Positions 1,414-34,258 of a DNA stretch of 64,000 nucleotides are shown here, piece after piece. Position numbers and translations under genes: made by a program. The notes beneath the pieces are model-generated. The model did not search any database, was not told the origin of the DNA, and saw nothing but the letters and a program-made list of their open reading frames with translations. Source of the DNA: an uncultured Erysipelotrichaceae bacterium (lineage in GTDB: Bacteria > Bacillota_I > Bacilli_A > RFN20 > CAG-826); NCBI GenBank assembly GCA_902800025.1, contig CADCDA010000001.1, forward strand, positions 88,288 through 152,287, written 5' to 3'. Positions within the stretch are counted from its first letter, which is position 1, and each line of letters starts with the position of its first letter.

Positions 1414-1489
1414 GGATGCTTAGCTCAGCTGGGAGAGCATCGCCTTTACACGGCGGAGGTCGGGGGTTCGAGCCCCTCAGCATCCACCA
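1414..1489 (+). tRNA. tRNA-Val (anticodon TAC)
   Basis: Cloverleaf folded by eye: acceptor GGATGCT/AGCATCC, D-arm GCTC..GAGC, anticodon loop TTTACAC, T-loop TTCGAGC, encoded CCA. Confidence 0.85.
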
Positions 1490-1508
1490 CTATACGCCAA
1501 AATAAAAT

Positions 1509-1592
1509 GGAGGGGTAGCGAAGAGGCTAAACGCGGCTGACTGTAAATCAGCTCCTTAGGGTTCGGCGGTTCGAATCTGCCCCCCTCCACCA
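1509..1592 (+). tRNA. tRNA-Tyr (anticodon GTA)
   Basis: Acceptor GGAGGGG/CCCCTCC, anticodon loop CTGTAAA, long variable arm, T-loop TTCGAAT, encoded CCA. Confidence 0.85.
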
Positions 1593-1600
1593 CCTATTAT

Positions 1601-1676
1601 TGGGGTGTAGCCAAGAGGTAAGGCAACAGACTTTGACTCTGTCATCTCAGTGGTTCGATCCCACTCACCCCAGCCA
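1601..1676 (+). tRNA. tRNA-Gln (anticodon TTG)
   Basis: Acceptor TGGGGTG/CACCCCA, anticodon stem ACAGA/TCTGT with loop CTTTGAC, T-loop TTCGATC, encoded CCA. Confidence 0.85.
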
Positions 1677-1681
1677 ATTTT

Positions 1682-1757
1682 GACTCGCTAGCTCAGTCGG
1701 TAGAGCACTTGACTTTTAATCAAGGGGTCCGGAGTTCGAATCTCCGGCGAGTCACCA
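1682..1757 (+). tRNA. tRNA-Lys (anticodon TTT)
   Basis: Acceptor GACTCGC/GCGAGTC, anticodon loop CTTTTAA, T-loop TTCGAAT, encoded CCA. Confidence 0.85.
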
Positions 1758-1772
1758 CTTGATTAAAAAGAT

Positions 1773-1860
1773 GCCCAGGTGGCGGAACAGGTAGACGCAC
1801 AAGACTTAAAATCTTGCGGATGTATAATCCGTACCGGTTCGATTCCGGTCCCGGGCACCA
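1773..1860 (+). tRNA. tRNA-Leu (anticodon TAA)
   Basis: Class II tRNA with long variable arm (GCGGATGTATAATCCGT), anticodon loop CTTAAAA, T-loop TTCGATT, encoded CCA. Confidence 0.8.
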
Positions 1861-9343: not shown

Positions 9344-10462
9344 ATGACAGTAGAAAAAATCAATGAACTCATTATAAATATCCTCGGTGAAGGGGCAAAA
9401 ATCGACCACGAAATGTTAGGTGGTATGATGAATATGTCTTACCAAGTCGTAGACAAAAATGGTAAGAAATATATCCTTTATATTCCAACCGAACAAGCTA
9501 ATGAAATGGTGGACCGTGTTTTAGAAAAAGAGCACCAAAGAATCATTTACGAATTAGGTATCACAAGCAAGAATGTTTATTTCGATGAAAAGACCGGTAT
9601 TAAAATGAACGAATTTATCGAAGGAGATTCCATCAATAATATCGCTTCTTTTGATTATGATAAAATTGCTGCATTATTCAAAAAGTTACATAGCTCAATC
9701 ATGCTATCTAGAAAAGACTACGCTCCATTTACTAGATTTACTGAAATCTATGAAAAAGAAGCCCTTGAATTTAATAAAGAAATTTCTCCTTTATATACTG
9801 AATTAAGGGACTTCCTATTCGCTAAACGTGATTTTTTAGAGTCTCAACCACTCGTTTTATCTCATAACGACGCTCAAAGAAGTAACATTGTCAAAACTCC
9901 TAATGATGAATACTATTTTATCGATTTTGAGTTCGTTGGAAATAACGATCCAATTTATGATATTGCGGCCTTTGGTAACGGTTTAGTGTCCGAAGGAAGA
10001 AAATTATTAGAAAAATATTTTAACGGTAACCCAACTGATAATGAAATTAGAAGATACTATTTATGGAGAATCTACATTTCCTTGCAGTGGTATAACGTCG
10101 CCATCACTAAACATTATCGCGGAGAAGGTGAGAAACATGGTTTCAACTTCTTAGATGTCGCTACTCATTTCTTAAATAACGCCAAAGATGCTTATGATGG
10201 ATATCATCTAGAAATTAGAGATAAAGAAGTTGAAGATGACACTATCGCTTTAATCATCACCACCTTAGATAAAGTTAGACATTTCTTAAGAAAAGATGGA
10301 GGAGACTGTGAATTTGTTTCCTTTGAAAATGGAGTGGTCTATGTCAAAATGCAAGGAGCCTGCGAAGGTTGCTCATTCGCTTATAATGACATTAAAGATT
10401 TAGTGGAAGTCATCCTCCAAGAAGAAGTTCCTGGAGTAGTTGAAGTTCGACTCGCGGAGTAA
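9344..10462 (+). CDS. Choline/aminoglycoside-kinase-like phosphotransferase fused to a C-terminal Nfu/NifU-like Fe-S domain
   Basis: Residues 1-300 carry the Brenner motif HNDAQRSNIV and IDFEF (ChoK/APH fold). Residues 300-372 match the NifU C-terminal domain (DGGDCEFVSFENGVVYVKMQGACEGCS). Confidence 0.6.
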   Translation: MTVEKINELIINILGEGAKIDHEMLGGMMNMSYQVVDKNGKKYILYIPTEQANEMVDRVLEKEHQRIIYELGITSKNVYFDEKTGIKMNEFIEGDSINNIASFDYDKIAALFKKLHSSIMLSRKDYAPFTRFTEIYEKEALEFNKEISPLYTELRDFLFAKRDFLESQPLVLSHNDAQRSNIVKTPNDEYYFIDFEFVGNNDPIYDIAAFGNGLVSEGRKLLEKYFNGNPTDNEIRRYYLWRIYISLQWYNVAITKHYRGEGEKHGFNFLDVATHFLNNAKDAYDGYHLEIRDKEVEDDTIALIITTLDKVRHFLRKDGGDCEFVSFENGVVYVKMQGACEGCSFAYNDIKDLVEVILQEEVPGVVEVRLAE

Positions 10463-10463
10463 T

Positions 10464-10538
10464 TGGGGTATAGCCAAGTGGAAAGGCATCTGGCTCTGAA
10501 CCAGACATTCCTTGGTTCGAATCCAAGTACCCCAGCCA
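10464..10538 (+). tRNA. tRNA-Gln (anticodon CTG)
   Basis: Acceptor TGGGGTA/TACCCCA, anticodon loop CTCTGAA, T-loop TTCGAAT, encoded CCA. It starts 2 nt after the upstream stop codon. Confidence 0.8.
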
Positions 10539-30085: not shown

Positions 30086-30430
30086 GTCTTCGATCCTGTA
30101 AGCCATGTTTTGTCTAGGATGATAATTTATCTAAGAATATTCTTACTTGAGTTGATTCGGTTCTCTATCAAGTCTCCCCTACCAAATTTGGGTTTCTCGC
30201 TTACGGGGTTTACCGCGTTCCACTTTGCTCTTTCAAACAAACTTCGTCACTGTGGCACTTTCAGGAATCCTACCATGGGTTGCCCTTTAGGTCGATTTCC
30301 GCCGTCACGCACTCCTACGTGCCTAGTGTTATTTTTTCCACTAGCGCAATCACTACAGCCGTCACAGACTGTGCGAGCATGGACTTTCCTCTAACTAACT
30401 AGTAGCCAGCAATCATCCAGATCGAAGGTT
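30086..30430 (-). ncRNA. rnpB: RNase P RNA, Bacillus type (type B)
   Basis: The minus strand contains AGAGGAAAGTCCATGCTCGCACAG, GGGCAACCCATGG, AAAGTGCCACAGTGACGAAG, GGAACGCGGTAAACCCC, GAAACCCAAATTTGGTAGGGGA and ACAAAACATGGCTTACAGGATCGAAG. The P1 helix pairs CCTTCGATC with GATCGAAG. It lies immediately downstream of gpsB, as in Bacillus subtilis. Confidence 0.85.
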
Positions 30431-30793: not shown

Positions 30794-30923
30794 ATCTCTT
30801 ATATTATCTCTTATATTAAATTATTTTTCTATGAAAAATTACTGAATATAGCACAAAATATTTAATAATTTGATTTTCATTTTCTTGAAAAGAAGATTTC
30901 ACACTTATAAACTTATTACGAAT

Positions 30924-31649
30924 ATGAAACGAGTATTAAAAAATTTTAAAGGCCATAAGCATCTCTGCTTCCTCGATTTCGAAGGAACACAATTCTCTCA
31001 CGAAATGATTGCCTATGGCGCTGTCCTAGTTACCATCGATAAAGAAGGTAACATAGTTAAACAAAAGCCTGCATTAAAGAAATATGTCAGAGCTAAAAAC
31101 GCAGTCGGCAAATACGTTGAAAATCTTACAGGTATCACTAGATTAGACTTGGATCGTTTTGGCGTTAGTTTTTCAGTCGCCATGAAAGACTTGAAAAAAT
31201 ATTGCGGTATTCATTTTAAAGGTTGTTCATTTTTAACATTTGGAAATCACGATATCAGAATCTTAAATCAATCAATCTCATATAACTTAGATGCTCCAAA
31301 AGATTTATGCACAGTAATTAAAAGCAACTATGTTGATTTCCAAGCAATCCTCGCTGAATTCATTAAGGATGACCACAATAATCCATATTCATTAACAAAC
31401 TATTTAAACGTCTTCAATTTAGAGTTTGATGGTGAAGCACATGATCCAGAATATGACGCTGTTAATCTTATGAGATTATATCAAGCATTCATGAAAGACA
31501 CTGATGTTATTGAAAAAGAATTTTTCAAGAATATGAAAAGACACACATTTAATCCAGCGCCAATTGATAGAGTAATCAAAGACTTACTCGATGGCAAGAC
31601 AGTAACACCAGAAGATTTCAAATCATATATTGATAACTATATCGAATAG
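30924..31649 (+). CDS. DEDDh-family 3'-5' exonuclease (DnaQ/KapD-like)
   Basis: Exo I motif FLDFEGT, exo III HDPEYDAVNLMRLY. Start assigned at the ATG at 30924 (MKRVLKNF) rather than the upstream non-ATG extension in the ORF track. The stop lies 1 nt before the recU start. Confidence 0.7.
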   Translation: MKRVLKNFKGHKHLCFLDFEGTQFSHEMIAYGAVLVTIDKEGNIVKQKPALKKYVRAKNAVGKYVENLTGITRLDLDRFGVSFSVAMKDLKKYCGIHFKGCSFLTFGNHDIRILNQSISYNLDAPKDLCTVIKSNYVDFQAILAEFIKDDHNNPYSLTNYLNVFNLEFDGEAHDPEYDAVNLMRLYQAFMKDTDVIEKEFFKNMKRHTFNPAPIDRVIKDLLDGKTVTPEDFKSYIDNYIE

Positions 31650-31650
31650 T

Positions 31651-32244
31651 ATGAAATATCCTAACGGGCAAGAATATAAACCAAATTCAAAAAAAGAAAG
31701 ACAATCTCATAAATCAAAAGCTGAGATTTCTTTAAGCAGCGCCAATAGAGGTATGGACCTCGAACACGAGATCAATTTATCTAATGATTATTACCGTGAT
31801 CACGACATCTGTTTAATCACAAAGAGGCCGACTCCTATCAATATTGTAAAAGTTGACTACTCAAAAGGCGCTAAAATTACACACGCCTATTTTGAAGAAC
31901 AATCAACCACCGACTATAACGGAGTGTATAAATCTCGCTATATTGATTTCGAAGCTAAAAATACCAAAAACAGGACTTCATTCCCGTTAAGCAATATCAC
32001 CAAACACCAGATCGAACATCTTAAAAGGGTACTATTCCACGGAGGAATTGCTTTCTTCATCATTAACTTTGAATCATTAGGAAAAATCTATTTATTAGAT
32101 GCAAGTTATGTGATTGAGTTTTATGAACACGGAGAAAGAAAATCAATTCCATATGACTGCTTTGTCACTAACGGAATTGAAATCGAACAAGGATATAATC
32201 CAAGAATTAATTATATAGAAGCAATTGAGAAGAAATACTTCTAG
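31651..32244 (+). CDS. recU: Holliday junction resolvase RecU
   Basis: MKYPNGQEY N-terminus parallels B. subtilis RecU (MIRYPNGK...). Conserved NRGM(x)LE motif and catalytic D/E residues. Start taken at Met-8 of the ORF-track model. Confidence 0.85.
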   Translation: MKYPNGQEYKPNSKKERQSHKSKAEISLSSANRGMDLEHEINLSNDYYRDHDICLITKRPTPINIVKVDYSKGAKITHAYFEEQSTTDYNGVYKSRYIDFEAKNTKNRTSFPLSNITKHQIEHLKRVLFHGGIAFFIINFESLGKIYLLDASYVIEFYEHGERKSIPYDCFVTNGIEIEQGYNPRINYIEAIEKKYF

Positions 32245-32864
32245 TATTTACAGTATTTTCTAAGCGCGCATTCTTCACATTTTGGAGAACGAGCCGTACA
32301 AAAATAACGACCGAAATGAATTAGTTGATGATGAGTCTTGATCCAATTAGATTCTGGAATCAACTTTTTTAATTTCTTCTCAATATCAATTGGTTCATCT
32401 TTACTATTTGCGATACCAAGTCGATTGGTAATTCTAATAATATGAGTGTCCACTGGCAAATCAGGTATTTTAAATACTTCAATACGAATAACGCCTGCTG
32501 ATTTATTACCGATTCCAGGAAGTGTTTGTAACAAATCTTTATCACTAGGTAATTCCCCATGAAAATCAGTAATAATTTTATGAACTATACCTTTGATATT
32601 TTTAGCTTTGTTCTTATATAAGCCAAGTTGCTTAATTCTTTCTTCTATTTCCTCTAGCGAGGCATTTTCTAAATCCTTTAAACTAGGAAAATCGTTAAAT
32701 AACTTGTAGGTAACCGCATTAACTGCTTTATCGGTAGTCTGCGCGCTGAGCATTACGGCGATTGCTAATTCGTAGTCGCGATTATAAAAAAGCTCACATT
32801 TTGCGTTAGGAAAAAGTGAGTCAACATAATTAGAGATAATAGACATTGTCTCTTTATTAATCAT
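32241..32864 (-). CDS. nth: Endonuclease III
   Basis: HhH-GPD motif (LPGIGNKSAGV) and a C-terminal 4Fe-4S cluster loop, CTARSPKCEECALRKYC. Confidence 0.9.
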   Translation of the reverse strand: MINKETMSIISNYVDSLFPNAKCELFYNRDYELAIAVMLSAQTTDKAVNAVTYKLFNDFPSLKDLENASLEEIEERIKQLGLYKNKAKNIKGIVHKIITDFHGELPSDKDLLQTLPGIGNKSAGVIRIEVFKIPDLPVDTHIIRITNRLGIANSKDEPIDIEKKLKKLIPESNWIKTHHQLIHFGRYFCTARSPKCEECALRKYCKY

Positions 32865-33507
32865 CGCTTTTTTTCACCCAAGGTATTTTCGCAATACGAA
32901 TTGTTTCTTCTAAGTTCTTGTCCCATTCACTACTTAATGGAGTGTGACCTTCATTTTCAAGATCATCTCTTTGAGACCAACTTAATAAAATCTTATCAAC
33001 ACTTCTTAAAGTTTTCTTTCCTCTAGAAAGAGCTTCTTTTAATGCATCAATAATTAATTTATCGCTATAACCATAACTTACCCACTCATGAATCTTGCTG
33101 ATTTCAACTGGGCTTAATGATCTATTTAGTAACTTTTCAAAGTTAAAATAAATGTTGTCTAATTCTTCAGAAATTCTTTTGCTAGTTTTTTCTTCCTCTT
33201 CTTTAGATAAGAAGATTTGGAACTCACGATAAAGCTTTTGCTTTAATGGTTCTAAAGATGCAACTATTTGTTTGCCAACTGTCTTATATTCAAAAAATCC
33301 TTTAGTAATTAAAGTCGCTAGAATCGTGTCGATCTCTTTAATGTCCAAAGACATCTTGAGAGATAATAAGTCGGCAGTCACAAATGGATTGCCTTGAGAG
33401 ATTAAATGATCAATAACAAAAATAGTTGCAAGCTCATTCTCTTTGATTTTGAGTTTCTTGTAATTCTCGATTAATAAATATCTAAAATCAATCGCTTCGG
33501 TAATCAT
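32857..33507 (-). CDS. dnaD: DnaD-domain replication initiation/membrane attachment protein
   Basis: Winged-helix N-domain plus a DnaD-like C-domain carrying the YxxxIxxxW-type motif (YGYSDKLIIDALKEAL ... ILLSW). Adjacent to nth, as in Bacillus. Confidence 0.7.
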   Translation of the reverse strand: MITEAIDFRYLLIENYKKLKIKENELATIFVIDHLISQGNPFVTADLLSLKMSLDIKEIDTILATLITKGFFEYKTVGKQIVASLEPLKQKLYREFQIFLSKEEEEKTSKRISEELDNIYFNFEKLLNRSLSPVEISKIHEWVSYGYSDKLIIDALKEALSRGKKTLRSVDKILLSWSQRDDLENEGHTPLSSEWDKNLEETIRIAKIPWVKKSDD

Positions 33508-33544
33508 TTGTATATCTACTTTATCACTTTCTTATCACGTAAAT

Positions 33545-34201
33545 CTATATTATTCCGTGGCTTTTTAATATTTCTATTAATTCTTCTTGATGAGATGATT
33601 TTTTAATCTCCTGGTTAATCTTATCGACATTAATCAATTTAGCTTTAGAAAAGTTATGTTCTAAAACTTCTTTGAGTTCCTTTTCAATTTCAAACCCAGT
33701 TTCTAGTTGAAAACGATACACTCTTATGATTCTTAAAGGATCTTCATTTATACGTTTTAGGGGCTTTCCTATCATTCTAATGACTTTTTTATCGATATCT
33801 TTTCTACCACCAACAAGGTCGATAACTTCGAGTTTGTCATTCATATACATCGCATTAATTGTGATATCTCTTCTAAAAACATCTTCTTTAATACTCTTTG
33901 TAAAACAAATTTTACTTGGATGACGATAATCACTATAGCCATCTTCTTTCCTAAGGGTGGTTATATCAAATTTAGTGTCTTCAATCTTTAACTTCACACT
34001 TCCATATTTTTCAAAAGTGTAATCAGCGTTATTTAAAAACTCTTTCATTTCACTTGGAGTAGCGTCAGTCACTAAATCCATGTCATCTAGTTCTTTACCT
34101 AAAAGGTAATCTCTAACAGTTCCTCCGACGAGATATAATAAAAAACCGTGTTTTTCAAAATCACTGGATAGTTTTTTATATAATTCAAGTTTACGATTCA
34201 T
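33545..34201 (-). CDS. Minimal class-II CCA/poly(A)-type nucleotidyltransferase (head and neck only)
   Basis: 218 aa with motif A GGTVRD, the catalytic DMDLVTD, motif RRDITINAM and EDPLRIIR. It lacks the body and tail tRNA-binding domains of 400-aa CCA enzymes. Confidence 0.65.
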   Translation of the reverse strand: MNRKLELYKKLSSDFEKHGFLLYLVGGTVRDYLLGKELDDMDLVTDATPSEMKEFLNNADYTFEKYGSVKLKIEDTKFDITTLRKEDGYSDYRHPSKICFTKSIKEDVFRRDITINAMYMNDKLEVIDLVGGRKDIDKKVIRMIGKPLKRINEDPLRIIRVYRFQLETGFEIEKELKEVLEHNFSKAKLINVDKINQEIKKSSHQEELIEILKSHGII

Positions 34202-34228
34202 ATATTAATTATATTAATAAAAAGGCAA

Positions 34229-34258
34229 AACAAAAAGACCTTTGTCAGGTCTTAATGA
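34229..34258 (-). terminator. Rho-independent terminator of hup
   Basis: Palindrome AAGACCT-TTGTC-AGGTCTT followed on the minus strand by a U-run. Confidence 0.7.

Follow-up and report, generated by a model that had tools for sequence, protein, structure and literature searches.

The 64-kb stretch of DNA analyzed here (the window) carries a class II nucleotidyltransferase gene that encodes only the catalytic head and neck of the enzyme, is intact, and is under purifying selection. Its product is one of a large clade of ~220-aa proteins from Erysipelotrichales-like and other uncultured Bacilli, and we read these short proteins as truncated cca orthologues of the Erysipelotrichales-like lineage. 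A cca orthologue reduced to its catalytic half and kept in a repair-only role is, in our judgment, the probable explanation of the data as a whole. CCA-adding enzymes are a textbook case of template-independent, sequence-specific polymerization, and the C-terminal half of the protein is considered to hold the tRNA during the switch from C to A addition. To our knowledge, all class II CCA-adding enzymes studied have four domains.

The gene and its boundaries

The gene and its flanking elements are as follows.

33545..34201, minus strand: class II nucleotidyltransferase, head and neck only, read as a truncated cca orthologue (ATG start, 218 aa; Pfam, NCBIfam and PDB matches)
32857..33507, minus strand: dnaD, the downstream neighbor (Pfam DnaD_N and DnaB_2)
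34235..34253, minus strand: terminator-like hairpin 3' of hup and upstream of the nucleotidyltransferase gene (7-bp stem, then TTTGTTTT)
34208..34213, minus strand: TATAAT hexamer whose end lies 6 nt from the ATG, found by sequence inspection; no Shine-Dalgarno element accompanies it

The nucleotidyltransferase ORF is uninterrupted from its ATG, and only 37 nt lie between its stop codon and the start of dnaD, with which it is probably co-transcribed. On the other side, the hairpin stands between hup and the ORF. The TATAAT hexamer is a possible promoter of a leaderless mRNA, to judge from its placement; a promoter scan did not call it, and its -35 region is poor. The TATAAT-to-ATG geometry is identical at three related loci (L021, L022 and L013), and the spacing is 8-9 nt at two more (L018 and L012).

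That this is a real gene, bounded by a terminator and dnaD rather than cut short by the ORF caller, had been proposed in the initial annotation and is upheld: because length is conserved across the family, dN/dS is 0.06-0.10, the predicted fold is confident and synteny is conserved, the gene is neither a pseudogene nor an artefact. The frameshifted continuation into 33508-33544 that would have marked a pseudogene is not there; the interval is simply the 37-nt gap, followed by dnaD, and has no similarity to a body or tail. Using 118 C-terminal regions as tblastn queries, no body/tail similarity was found in this gap, in the alternative frames of dnaD, or in the rest of the 64-kb window, the only weak matches falling in the HD domain of RNase Y (~26.4-26.7 kb). 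Full-length queries likewise match only 33.5-34.2 kb and the HD domain, such that the window contains no second nucleotidyltransferase, and Pfam annotation of 30 further ORFs turned up neither a second nucleotidyltransferase nor a body or tail. Here, too, the related loci agree: no body/tail coding remnant is present in 335 kb across 24 of them.

Domain content and predicted fold

The only Pfam domain in the 218-aa protein is PF01743 (PolyA_pol head domain; residues 22-142, E 3e-36). The best NCBIfam match, NF009814 (Firmicute CCA tRNA nucleotidyltransferase), is matched over positions 15-203 of its 396, with a score of 207.4 bits, below the curated equivalog cutoff of 290. In a phmmer search of the PDB, residues 14-201 align gaplessly to residues 14-201 of 1MIV, the 404-aa class II CCA-adding enzyme of Geobacillus. 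The protein ends at the neck/body junction, with PF13735 wholly absent and the end of PF12627 missing, which together make up a body and tail of about 185 residues. The absence of these domains, noted from the ORF alone at the outset, is thereby confirmed, and the alignment with class II CCA enzymes that had been recommended as a check identifies the protein as a head-and-neck-only member of that class. Models for other specificities fit far less well: two PcnB models give 118 bits against a cutoff of 306 (TIGR01942) and 89 against 702 (NF008634), and the A-adding model NF041569 gives 53 against 1440.

The AlphaFold (AF2) model of the 218-aa protein has a pLDDT of 93.8 and a pTM of 0.88, which predicts that head and neck form an autonomous module. 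Foldseek returns only class II CCA enzymes and poly(A) polymerases, about half of each target being covered; the TM-score is 0.84-0.88 when normalized on the query and about 0.5 on CCA enzyme structures of 366-395 residues.

Conserved motifs and clade-specific substitutions

The signatures GGTVRD...DMD, RRDITINA, DLVGGRKD and EDPLRIIRVYRF are all present, and they are invariant across the family. Placed on the sequence, the catalytic elements are these.

34067..34129, minus strand: motif A, V25-T45, VGGTVRDYLLGKELDDMDLVT; D40 and D42 are its catalytic carboxylates (by conservation)
33995..34009, minus strand: beta-turn element, K65-V69, KYGSV (by alignment to 1MIV; HGTV in full-length enzymes)
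33905..33952, minus strand: flexible-loop region, R84-C99, full length (gapless against 1MIV)
33851..33874, minus strand: motif B, R110-A117, RRDITINA, ribose-discriminating (R110, R111, D112, T114 and N116 invariant)
33797..33820, minus strand: motif C, D128-D135, DLVGGRKD, the spring element (PMC8563995) (D128, G132 and D135 invariant)
33710..33745, minus strand: motif D, E153-F164, EDPLRIIRVYRF, the amino-acid template selecting CTP or ATP (by conservation)
33599..33631, minus strand: degenerate motif E, N191-K201, NVDKINQEIKK (D193/K194 in place of the E-R pair)

Motif A residues G26, G27, R30, D31, D40 and D42 are invariant among 56 family members and reach 98-100% in the short clade and in full-length enzymes alike. 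Within the short clade, conservation is 100% at R110, R111 and D112 of motif B and at E153, D154, R157, R160 and R163 of motif D, and P155 is a clade-specific residue at a position that is A in 71% of full-length enzymes. The flexible loop lacks the deletion seen in CC-adding enzymes, and R84, Y89, D91, R93 and P95 are kept in both clades; this loop is also the lowest-pLDDT block of the AF2 model (73-84). With no loop deletion and no C-terminus, the 218-aa protein has the hallmarks of neither the CC-adding nor the A-adding enzymes.

Motif E is another matter. In 95 full-length enzymes its consensus, xERxxxExxK, has E in 99% and R in 100%, whereas in the short clade the first of these positions is variable and the second is K in 95%, the window protein having D193-K194. 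The initial description of a complete set of head and neck motifs accordingly holds for motifs A-D and fails for motif E. The clade has also changed systematically at other positions where conservation among full-length enzymes is 82-100%, so that the full list reads G63F, T68S, E79D, A119Y and E193/R194 to x/K. The beta-turn has YGS in place of HGT, a change that includes T68S, with G63F nearby. Position 79, Asp here and Glu in 98% of full-length enzymes, is presumably the proposed third carboxylate of 1MIV, on the strand neighboring motif A. Substitution at such positions suggests, on the evidence of the alignments, altered function or altered mechanics. With DK for ER in motif E, with A119Y and G63F, and with no C-terminus, the protein may or may not have the product specificity of full-length enzymes. 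The head and neck of the short clade are, in addition, about 4 charge units more positive than those of full-length enzymes, as would fit compensatory RNA binding; AT-rich codon bias could also account for this charge.

A locus shared with Bacillus cca

All of the short and fusion members (see below) that we examined share a single locus, (dapB/hup)-NTase-dnaD-nth-recU, of which locus L010 gives an extended version, cmk-der-gpsA-spoVIF-spoIVA-hbs-dapB-NTase-dnaD-nth-ponA-recU. DnaD is encoded directly 3' in 22 of 24 such loci, and the remaining two are uninformative (L032 ends there). The Bacillus subtilis chromosome presumably continues beyond its cca operon as dnaD-nth-ponA-recU. The operon itself runs ypjD-dapB-mgsA-bshB1-bshA-cca-birA (PMC5372718). 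By virtue of the order dapB-NTase-dnaD-nth-ponA-recU at L010, the short gene is a positional orthologue of Bacillus cca; dapB/hup on one side and dnaD on the other mark its place as the ancestral one of cca.

The full-length relatives nearest to the short proteins, P0154 and P0236, lie at loci unrelated to this one. P0154, the closest full-length sequence of all, has its own relatives in Clostridia (Defluviitaleaceae, Epulopiscium and Lachnospiraceae).

A lineage-wide short form

What the initial annotation missed is that the minimal enzyme belongs to a lineage-wide clade with signature substitutions and domain fusions. More than 230 database clusters share a length of 203-240 aa, down to about 31-38% identity. 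Searching with the window protein returned >120 clusters of 200-235 aa, and a profile of deep members added 120 more of 203-240 aa. The gene is carried on contigs of 1.07 and 1.33 Mb. Its dN/dS is 0.064 and 0.10, as compared with 0.01-0.07 for der, hup, dnaD and nth. A literature search for natural CCA-type enzymes of about 220 aa, or for work on Erysipelotrichia cca, returned nothing.

In a neighbor-joining tree the short and fusion forms make up a single clade, separate from 95 body/tail-containing enzymes. Exact bootstrap support for this clade is 48/100, and the best-matching split overlaps it with a median of 0.98 and a 5th percentile of 0.95; on this tree the short and fusion forms would be monophyletic only to within one or two sequences. 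In the fusion variants the C-terminus is an M19 dipeptidase or a GT2 domain. We considered whether the M19 fusion might be a gene-calling artefact and rejected the idea, as the ORF is continuous and its translation matches the query; the same architecture is common to 8 cluster representatives at 50% identity, with a full-length match to Listeria M19 structures. Some members of the fusion clade have degenerate, low-complexity C-termini.

tRNA genes and encoded CCA

The window contains six tRNA genes.

1414..1860, plus strand: tRNA cluster Val-Tyr-Gln-Lys-Leu, each with an encoded 3' CCA
10464..10538, plus strand: tRNA-Gln(CUG), with an encoded 3' CCA

The gene sequences bear out the earlier claim that all six encode CCA. 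Across the contigs that carry the short form, the figure is 9/9, a small sample that includes the window's six; ARAGORN calls all nine as ordinary tRNAs, and the six also match the Rfam tRNA model. Among the nine are genes for Gln, Leu, Arg and Thr; in B. subtilis, many or most of the genes for these isotypes do not encode CCA (PMC5372718, Table 1). In the Tenericutes, CCA is templated in all tRNA genes (PMC5143459), and the Mollicutes lost both CCAase and RNase Z early (PMC4014445). From these nine genes, and by analogy with the Tenericutes (PMC5143459, PMC4014445), CCA addition may be dispensable for tRNA maturation.

Proposed function

The initial annotation offered two alternatives, a repair-only minimal CCA enzyme or some other nucleotidyltransferase. 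Both are consistent with all of our findings; positional orthology to cca, together with the encoded CCA in 9/9 tRNA genes, strengthens the case for repair. As deduced from sequence, then, the short protein is most likely a low-affinity, repair-only CCA enzyme. A Firmicute cca orthologue would have lost its whole C-terminal tRNA-binding half, body and tail, while keeping the full catalytic head and the nucleotide-selecting neck. If all tRNA genes in the carriers template CCA, like those of their Mollicutes relatives, de novo CCA synthesis would be unnecessary and the T-loop anchor consequently dispensable. In full-length enzymes it is the C-terminal half that provides the tRNA-binding site anchoring the T-loop, and mini- and microhelices still serve as substrates, albeit poorer ones (PMC7730189, PMC8563995). 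The remaining core could likewise bind only the acceptor end, with the low affinity at which full-length enzymes act on minihelices, and mend tRNAs trimmed by 3' exonucleases by putting back A76 (or C75-A76), its motif D EDxxR/R template picking CTP or ATP. On this account the short form would be a stable stage on the way from the full cca of Bacillus and other Bacilli to the Mollicutes, where cca is lost completely.

Swapping C-terminal regions can change whether poly(A) or CCA is the product (PMC2532741), so a core without its C-terminus may not stop at CCA. A more tentative reading is that the bare class II core, with neither tRNA anchor nor partner, is the only tRNA nucleotidyltransferase of Erysipelotrichales-like gut Bacilli as a whole, and that it either makes accurate CCA by recognizing the acceptor end alone or has drifted to other products or substrates. 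The altered motif E, A119Y, G63F and the M19 and GT2 fusions hint at such a drift. Should the bare-core proposal be true, the short protein would in either case show how small a natural enzyme for template-independent CCA synthesis can be, and would supply a missing step toward the cca-free Mollicutes.

An unlikely alternative is that the core, for want of the tail that measures the tRNA, has lost its CCA stop or its tRNA preference and been repurposed as a general RNA 3'-tailing enzyme, poly(A) polymerase-like, whose oligo(A) or C/A-rich additions would serve RNA decay or quality control. In chimeras the choice of poly(A) or CCA is set by C-terminal regions (PMC2532741), and A-adding enzymes are restricted in specificity by their body and tail, according to the account of Tretbar 2011 given in PMC3925840. 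The clade-wide alteration of motif E and other otherwise invariant positions, the tolerance of alternative C-terminal domains, and selection about twice as relaxed as on neighboring housekeeping genes all point the same way. Set against this, motif D, with its CTP/ATP selection, the flexible loop and the beta-turn are kept, elements needed for the C-to-A switch, the loop playing no part in polyadenylation (PMC2532741); scores for the PcnB models fall far below their cutoffs (118 vs 306 and 89 vs 702 bits); and, in structure and in sequence, the nearest matches are CCA-adding enzymes rather than poly(A) polymerases.

We regard it as similarly improbable that a full-length cca, or a body/tail protein pairing in trans, lies elsewhere in the genome and makes the short protein a subunit or accessory. 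The catalytic core is structurally separable from the tRNA-binding half, as seen in the Foldseek matches and in PMC8563995, and bacteria with split CC-adding and A-adding activities are known (PMC7014341). Yet it is the short gene that sits at the ancestral cca position beside dapB and dnaD (L010; PMC5372718), body/tail coding is absent from the 64-kb window and the 335 kb of 24 related loci, and redundant copies are unlikely to persist in small genomes such as those represented by the 1.07- and 1.33-Mb contigs. Decay is the remaining alternative: a functionless, truncated cca on its way to loss would find precedent in the Mollicutes, where the gene is gone entirely (PMC4014445), and could draw on a dN/dS somewhat above that of neighboring genes and on the degenerate, low-complexity C-termini of some fusion-clade members. 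We give this explanation almost no credence, as length and catalytic residues are kept in >230 clusters to about 31-38% identity, dN/dS is still 0.06-0.10, the fold is predicted with confidence, and genomes of about 1.1-1.3 Mb have kept the gene; the conservation data effectively refute it.

Comparison with known enzymes

The closest known systems are the class II CCA-adding enzymes of Bacillales (Geobacillus stearothermophilus, 1MIV; Planococcus halocryophilus, 6QY6; NF009814), with which the short protein shares head and neck, motifs A-D, the beta-turn, the full loop, the fold, and the chromosomal position of cca. It differs in being without the tRNA-binding body and tail, in scoring below the NF009814 cutoff, in having DK rather than ER in motif E, and in G63F, E79D, A119Y and A155P. 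Engineered C-terminal deletions and chimeras of class II enzymes (Betat 2004; Tretbar 2011), as they are described in the papers that cite them (PMC2532741, PMC3925840, PMC7730189), likewise part the core from a C-terminus that modulates nucleotide choice. Going by those same descriptions, the engineered variants are laboratory constructs, whereas the short protein is natural and maintained by selection across a lineage. A catalytic core can thus be kept by selection without the half that anchors the tRNA, and this natural family of catalytic halves offers a minimal enzyme with which to test what the core recognizes and where it stops.

The Mollicutes, in which CCAase was lost (Grosjean et al. 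2014, PMC4014445), are also reduced-genome relatives of the Bacilli whose tRNA genes encode CCA and whose need for CCA addition is relaxed. They deleted the gene, while in the short-form lineage purifying selection maintains its catalytic half, and this implies that nucleotidyltransferase activity of some kind remains of use. As an evolutionary intermediate, the short form would connect the templating of CCA across the genome with loss of the tRNA anchor and with the gene loss of Mollicutes. The CCA-adding enzyme of the nematode Romanomermis culicivorax, adapted to armless mitochondrial tRNAs (PMC7730189), similarly leaves the contact between T-loop and C-terminus unused and must obtain its binding from the core (beta-turn region); there the tRNA lost its arms and the enzyme is full length, whereas here it is the enzyme that has lost a half, the tRNA-binding one, and the nine tRNA genes are called as ordinary. 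PcnB (poly(A) polymerase I) has the class II head domain and core fold in common with the short protein, which lacks the PAP-specific C-terminal region and is nearer in sequence to CCA enzymes.

The fusion members of the clade, with their M19 dipeptidase or GT2 domains, are not accounted for by a pure repair model. A caution for annotation also follows, in that these proteins are automatically named 'CCA tRNA nucleotidyltransferase' despite failing the curated cutoff and missing half of the enzyme.

Domain architecture of the 218-residue protein

The initial annotation described a minimal CCA/poly(A)-type nucleotidyltransferase in the window; our analysis confirms it as a real and conserved "half" CCA enzyme, found throughout a lineage. 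The gene and its boundaries are as follows.

33545..34201, minus strand: nucleotidyltransferase ORF, 218 aa, ATG start, intact reading frame
34235-34253: terminator-like hairpin, 3' of hup and upstream of the nucleotidyltransferase gene
32857..33507: dnaD (DnaD_N + DnaB_2), beginning 37 nt past the nucleotidyltransferase stop

The upstream terminator and downstream dnaD proposed as bounds of the ORF are thus both in place. The sole Pfam domain of the protein is PF01743 (PolyA_pol head; residues 22-142, E 3e-36). The top NCBIfam model is NF009814 (Firmicute CCA tRNA nucleotidyltransferase), matched over positions 15-203 of 396 with 207 bits, under its curated cutoff of 290 bits; the models for PcnB, the proteobacterial CCA enzyme and the A-adding enzyme give far lower scores. 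In a PDB search, residues 14-201 align without gaps to the same-numbered residues of 1MIV, the 404-aa class II enzyme from Geobacillus stearothermophilus (E 7.5e-36), and the Planococcus CCA enzyme matches equally well. The chain retains motif A (GGTVRD...DMD), the beta-turn and a flexible loop of full length, as well as motif B (RRDITINA), motif C (DLVGGRKD) and motif D (EDPLRIIRVYRF), and ends at the neck/body junction, ~17 residues past the position of motif E. A complete set of head and neck catalytic motifs without body or tail, as originally described, is therefore borne out by Pfam, NCBIfam and the 1MIV alignment, save that motif E is non-canonical.

An intact gene under selection

A frameshifted continuation of the reading frame had been raised as a possibility, and none was found: the stop is followed by the 37-nt gap and then dnaD. 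C-terminal regions taken from 118 homologues and used as tblastn queries detected no body/tail coding in the 64-kb window, the weak matches at 26.4-26.7 kb being to the HD domain of RNase Y, and full-length homologues match the window at 33.5-34.2 kb only. Pfam searches of 30 further window ORFs revealed no second nucleotidyltransferase or RNA-binding fragment.

The best 120 database matches to the protein are all 200-235 aa long (56-100% identity), and a profile of the deep members retrieves at least another 120 proteins, all 203-240 aa long but for one of 281 aa. Across 144 proteins of the same size the catalytic motifs are invariant, at identities to the window protein down to 38%. From the two relatives with DNA sequence, dN/dS is 0.064 (93% amino acid identity) and 0.10 (82%), as against 0.01-0.07 for the adjacent genes der, hup, dnaD and nth; purifying selection on the gene is clear, if roughly twofold relaxed by comparison with them. 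An AlphaFold2 model (56-sequence alignment) is confident, with pLDDT 93.8 and pTM 0.88, and Foldseek matches it in the PDB exclusively to class II CCA-adding, A-adding, CC-adding and poly(A) polymerase (PAP) structures. The TM-scores of 0.84-0.88 normalised to the query and ~0.5 to the target indicate that the model covers exactly the head and neck half of those structures. Selection, conserved size and motifs, the lack of a continuation and the confident fold together rule out a pseudogene or ORF-calling artefact, and a dead remnant of cca is hardly credible.

Genomic position and orthology to cca

All clade members (short forms of ~220 aa and fusion forms) whose gene context was examined occupy one locus, with the core order hup-NTase-dnaD-nth-(ponA)-recU, preceded by (gidAB-parAB-...)-cmk-der-(gpsA) and followed past recU by exonuclease-divIVA-pgsA-cinA-recA-rny-ymdB-miaB. 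Of 24 loci with a short or fused form, 22 encode DnaD directly downstream, at identities from 100% down to 25%; of the other two, L032 ends at that point and L015 has no DnaD match. Most informative is locus L010, whose nucleotidyltransferase is 42% identical to ours and which reads cmk-der-gpsA-spoVIF-spoIVA-hbs-dapB-NTase-dnaD-nth-ponA-recU, with dapB overlapping the start of the nucleotidyltransferase gene. In B. subtilis, cmk, der-gpsA, spoIVA and hbs presumably lie upstream of the cca region and dnaD-nth-ponA-recU downstream, cca itself belonging to the operon ypjD-dapB-mgsA-bshB1-bshA-cca-birA.
The operon structure is documented (PMC5372718). Given this shared gene order, the short gene is cca's orthologue by position, the chromosomal region around it being a contracted form of the one in B. 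subtilis.

The class A PBP gene ponA sits between nth and recU in L008 (10962-13277) and L010 (9980-12298), as we take it to do in B. subtilis, whereas the window (31630-32864), L013 and L018 lack it there; spoIVA and spoVIF occur only in L010. From these absences the window lineage looks like the more reduced branch.

Adjoining recU, at 30870-31649 on the plus strand (probable start 30924), is a ~241-aa ORF with a D-x-E motif (FLDFEGTQ). It has no Pfam match at E 1e-5, and its counterparts in L010, L018 and L022 match PF00929 (RNase T/DEDD exonuclease family). The ORF is conserved as part of this gene block. A 3' exonuclease close to a CCA enzyme would hint at turnover of tRNA ends, although this is pure speculation.

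Fusion forms and clade-specific substitutions

Within a search space of 1.84 billion cluster representatives, the nearest sequences divide into ~20 distinct representatives of 219-234 aa and proteins of 360-550 aa. The C-terminus of the closest longer proteins is not body/tail: eight representatives (P0147, P0138, P0150, P0159, P0169, P0179, P0192, P0209), a sister sub-lineage, carry an M19 (renal-type) dipeptidase, and one (P0133) a GT2 glycosyltransferase.

L008, 8001-9659: M19 fusion P0147, 552 aa, head and neck plus a complete M19 domain in one ORF
L015, 6040-7476 (also in L016): GT2 fusion P0133, 478 aa, between hup and the next gene

The M19 part matches Listeria M19 structures over its full length, and the fusion gene lies directly upstream of dnaD-nth-ponA-recU, the same locus as the short gene. 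Degenerate, low-complexity N/K/I-rich remnants of the M19 C-terminus persist in relatives P0143, P0155, P0194 and P0215. We know of no functional link between a nucleotidyltransferase head and neck and an M19 dipeptidase. A further protein, P0378 (281 aa), bears a short metallo-beta-lactamase fragment (PF00753) and may be a contig-end artefact.

In a neighbour-joining tree of the head and neck region (145 sequences), short and fusion forms make up one clade apart from 95 body/tail enzymes; this exact clade recurs in 48 of 100 bootstrap replicates, the best-matching split overlapping it with a median of 0.98 (5th percentile 0.95). Source names, where given, are "CCA tRNA nucleotidyltransferase [Bacilli bacterium]" or "[Erysipelotrichales bacterium]", and of three loci returned by a genome-collection search the sole GTDB match sharing this synteny belongs to an Erysipelotrichaceae MAG. 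With 1.33-Mb and 1.07-Mb contigs among the carriers, at least some of their genomes are small.

Comparison of 42 clade members with the 95 full-length enzymes shows systematic change at positions 63, 68, 79, 119, 155 and 193-194, which are 71-100% conserved in the latter, or 82-100% with A155 set aside: G63 to F, T68 to S (beta-turn), E79 to D, A119 to Y and A155 to P (these last two throughout the clade, 100%), and, in motif E, the pair E193-R194 to a variable residue plus K (K in 95%). Such substitutions could reflect co-adaptation to the missing body domain, or altered activity. Mean head and neck charge is -0.3 in the clade versus -4.3 in full-length enzymes; these ~4 additional positive units could make up for RNA contacts that were lost, or simply follow from AT-rich genomes.

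tRNA ends, proposed function and alternatives

Each of the six window tRNA genes encodes its 3' CCA, as first reported, and so do three more on contigs with short or fused forms (Val-GAC in L008, Arg-CCG in L034, Thr-CGU in L037), giving nine of nine on carrier contigs. In B. subtilis ~30% of tRNA genes lack CCA, including many or most Gln, Leu, Arg and Thr genes (PMC5372718, Table 1); our rough calculation from those isotype frequencies puts the chance of six out of six for the window genes at ~0.01. In Tenericutes every tRNA gene encodes its CCA (PMC5143459). Grosjean et al. concluded that the CCAase and RNase Z were lost very early in Mollicutes because CCA is encoded (PMC4014445), and by analogy the short enzyme would fit an intermediate state in a lineage related to Mollicutes. 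With CCA templated, the enzyme would be freed from de novo synthesis and could drop its tRNA anchor while retaining the catalytic core.

In class II enzymes the active site and nucleotide-selecting pocket reside in head and neck, the tRNA-binding site, made up of body and tail, holds the T-loop in place during the core's switch from CTP to ATP, and mini- and microhelices are usable but much less efficiently (PMC7730189, PMC8563995). The 218-aa protein might likewise hold the acceptor 3' end between head and neck, with motif D directing addition of C or A; affinity for tRNA would be low, with no measurement of the elbow, yet enough for occasional repair of tRNA-CC or tRNA-C. Judged from sequence, it appears to work like the Firmicute CCA-adding enzyme of class II and to descend from it. 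Since it departs from that family in three defining features (body and tail, motif E, the curated score cutoff), "truncated derivative" is a more apt description than bona fide member. We found no natural class II enzyme of ~218 aa described in the literature searched; the nearest precedents are laboratory truncations and chimeras of class II enzymes, the Romanomermis enzyme, whose core binds armless tRNAs (PMC7730189), and Mollicutes, where the gene was lost outright (PMC4014445).

That the protein is a truncated functional cca orthologue we regard as very probable; that it is specifically a tRNA CCA-repair enzyme we favour with moderate confidence. A PAP catalytic core joined to a CCA-enzyme C-terminus yields CCA (PMC2532741), so C-terminal regions shape the outcome of the reaction, and in A-adding enzymes body and tail reportedly inhibit CC addition, according to work cited in PMC3925840. 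Such C-terminal effects, with the signature substitutions, the charge shift and the clade's tolerance of unrelated M19 and GT2 domains, leave room for a changed product specificity, and a repurposed tailing enzyme is an unlikely alternative. We consider it similarly improbable that the gene is a paralogue of a second cca, or half of a split enzyme whose body/tail protein acts in trans. The case against a second cca copy is indirect: the positional orthology, the small carrier genomes, the lack of body/tail coding in the 64-kb window and 335 kb of related loci, and the clostridial origin of the nearest full-length sequences. The physiological role of the truncated orthologue is probably modest.

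A 372-aa ORF at 9344-10462 (plus strand), stopping 2 nt before tRNA-Gln(CUG), has a choline/ethanolamine kinase-like domain at residues 23-210 and, towards its C-terminus, a NifU-like one at 306-368, an unusual pairing. A class B (Firmicute-type) RNase P RNA at 30094-30424 (minus strand; 274 bits) places the organism among Firmicutes/Bacilli.

Start region of the nucleotidyltransferase gene

No Shine-Dalgarno sequence is found upstream of the gene (34202-34234, minus strand). In the window and in L021, L022 and L013 a TATAAT-like hexamer ends 6 nt ahead of the start codon; in L018 and L012 the distance is 8-9 nt. This suggests a leaderless mRNA, predicted to begin with the A of the ATG or close to it. 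In L010 and L008, GGAGG-type ribosome-binding sites are present instead.
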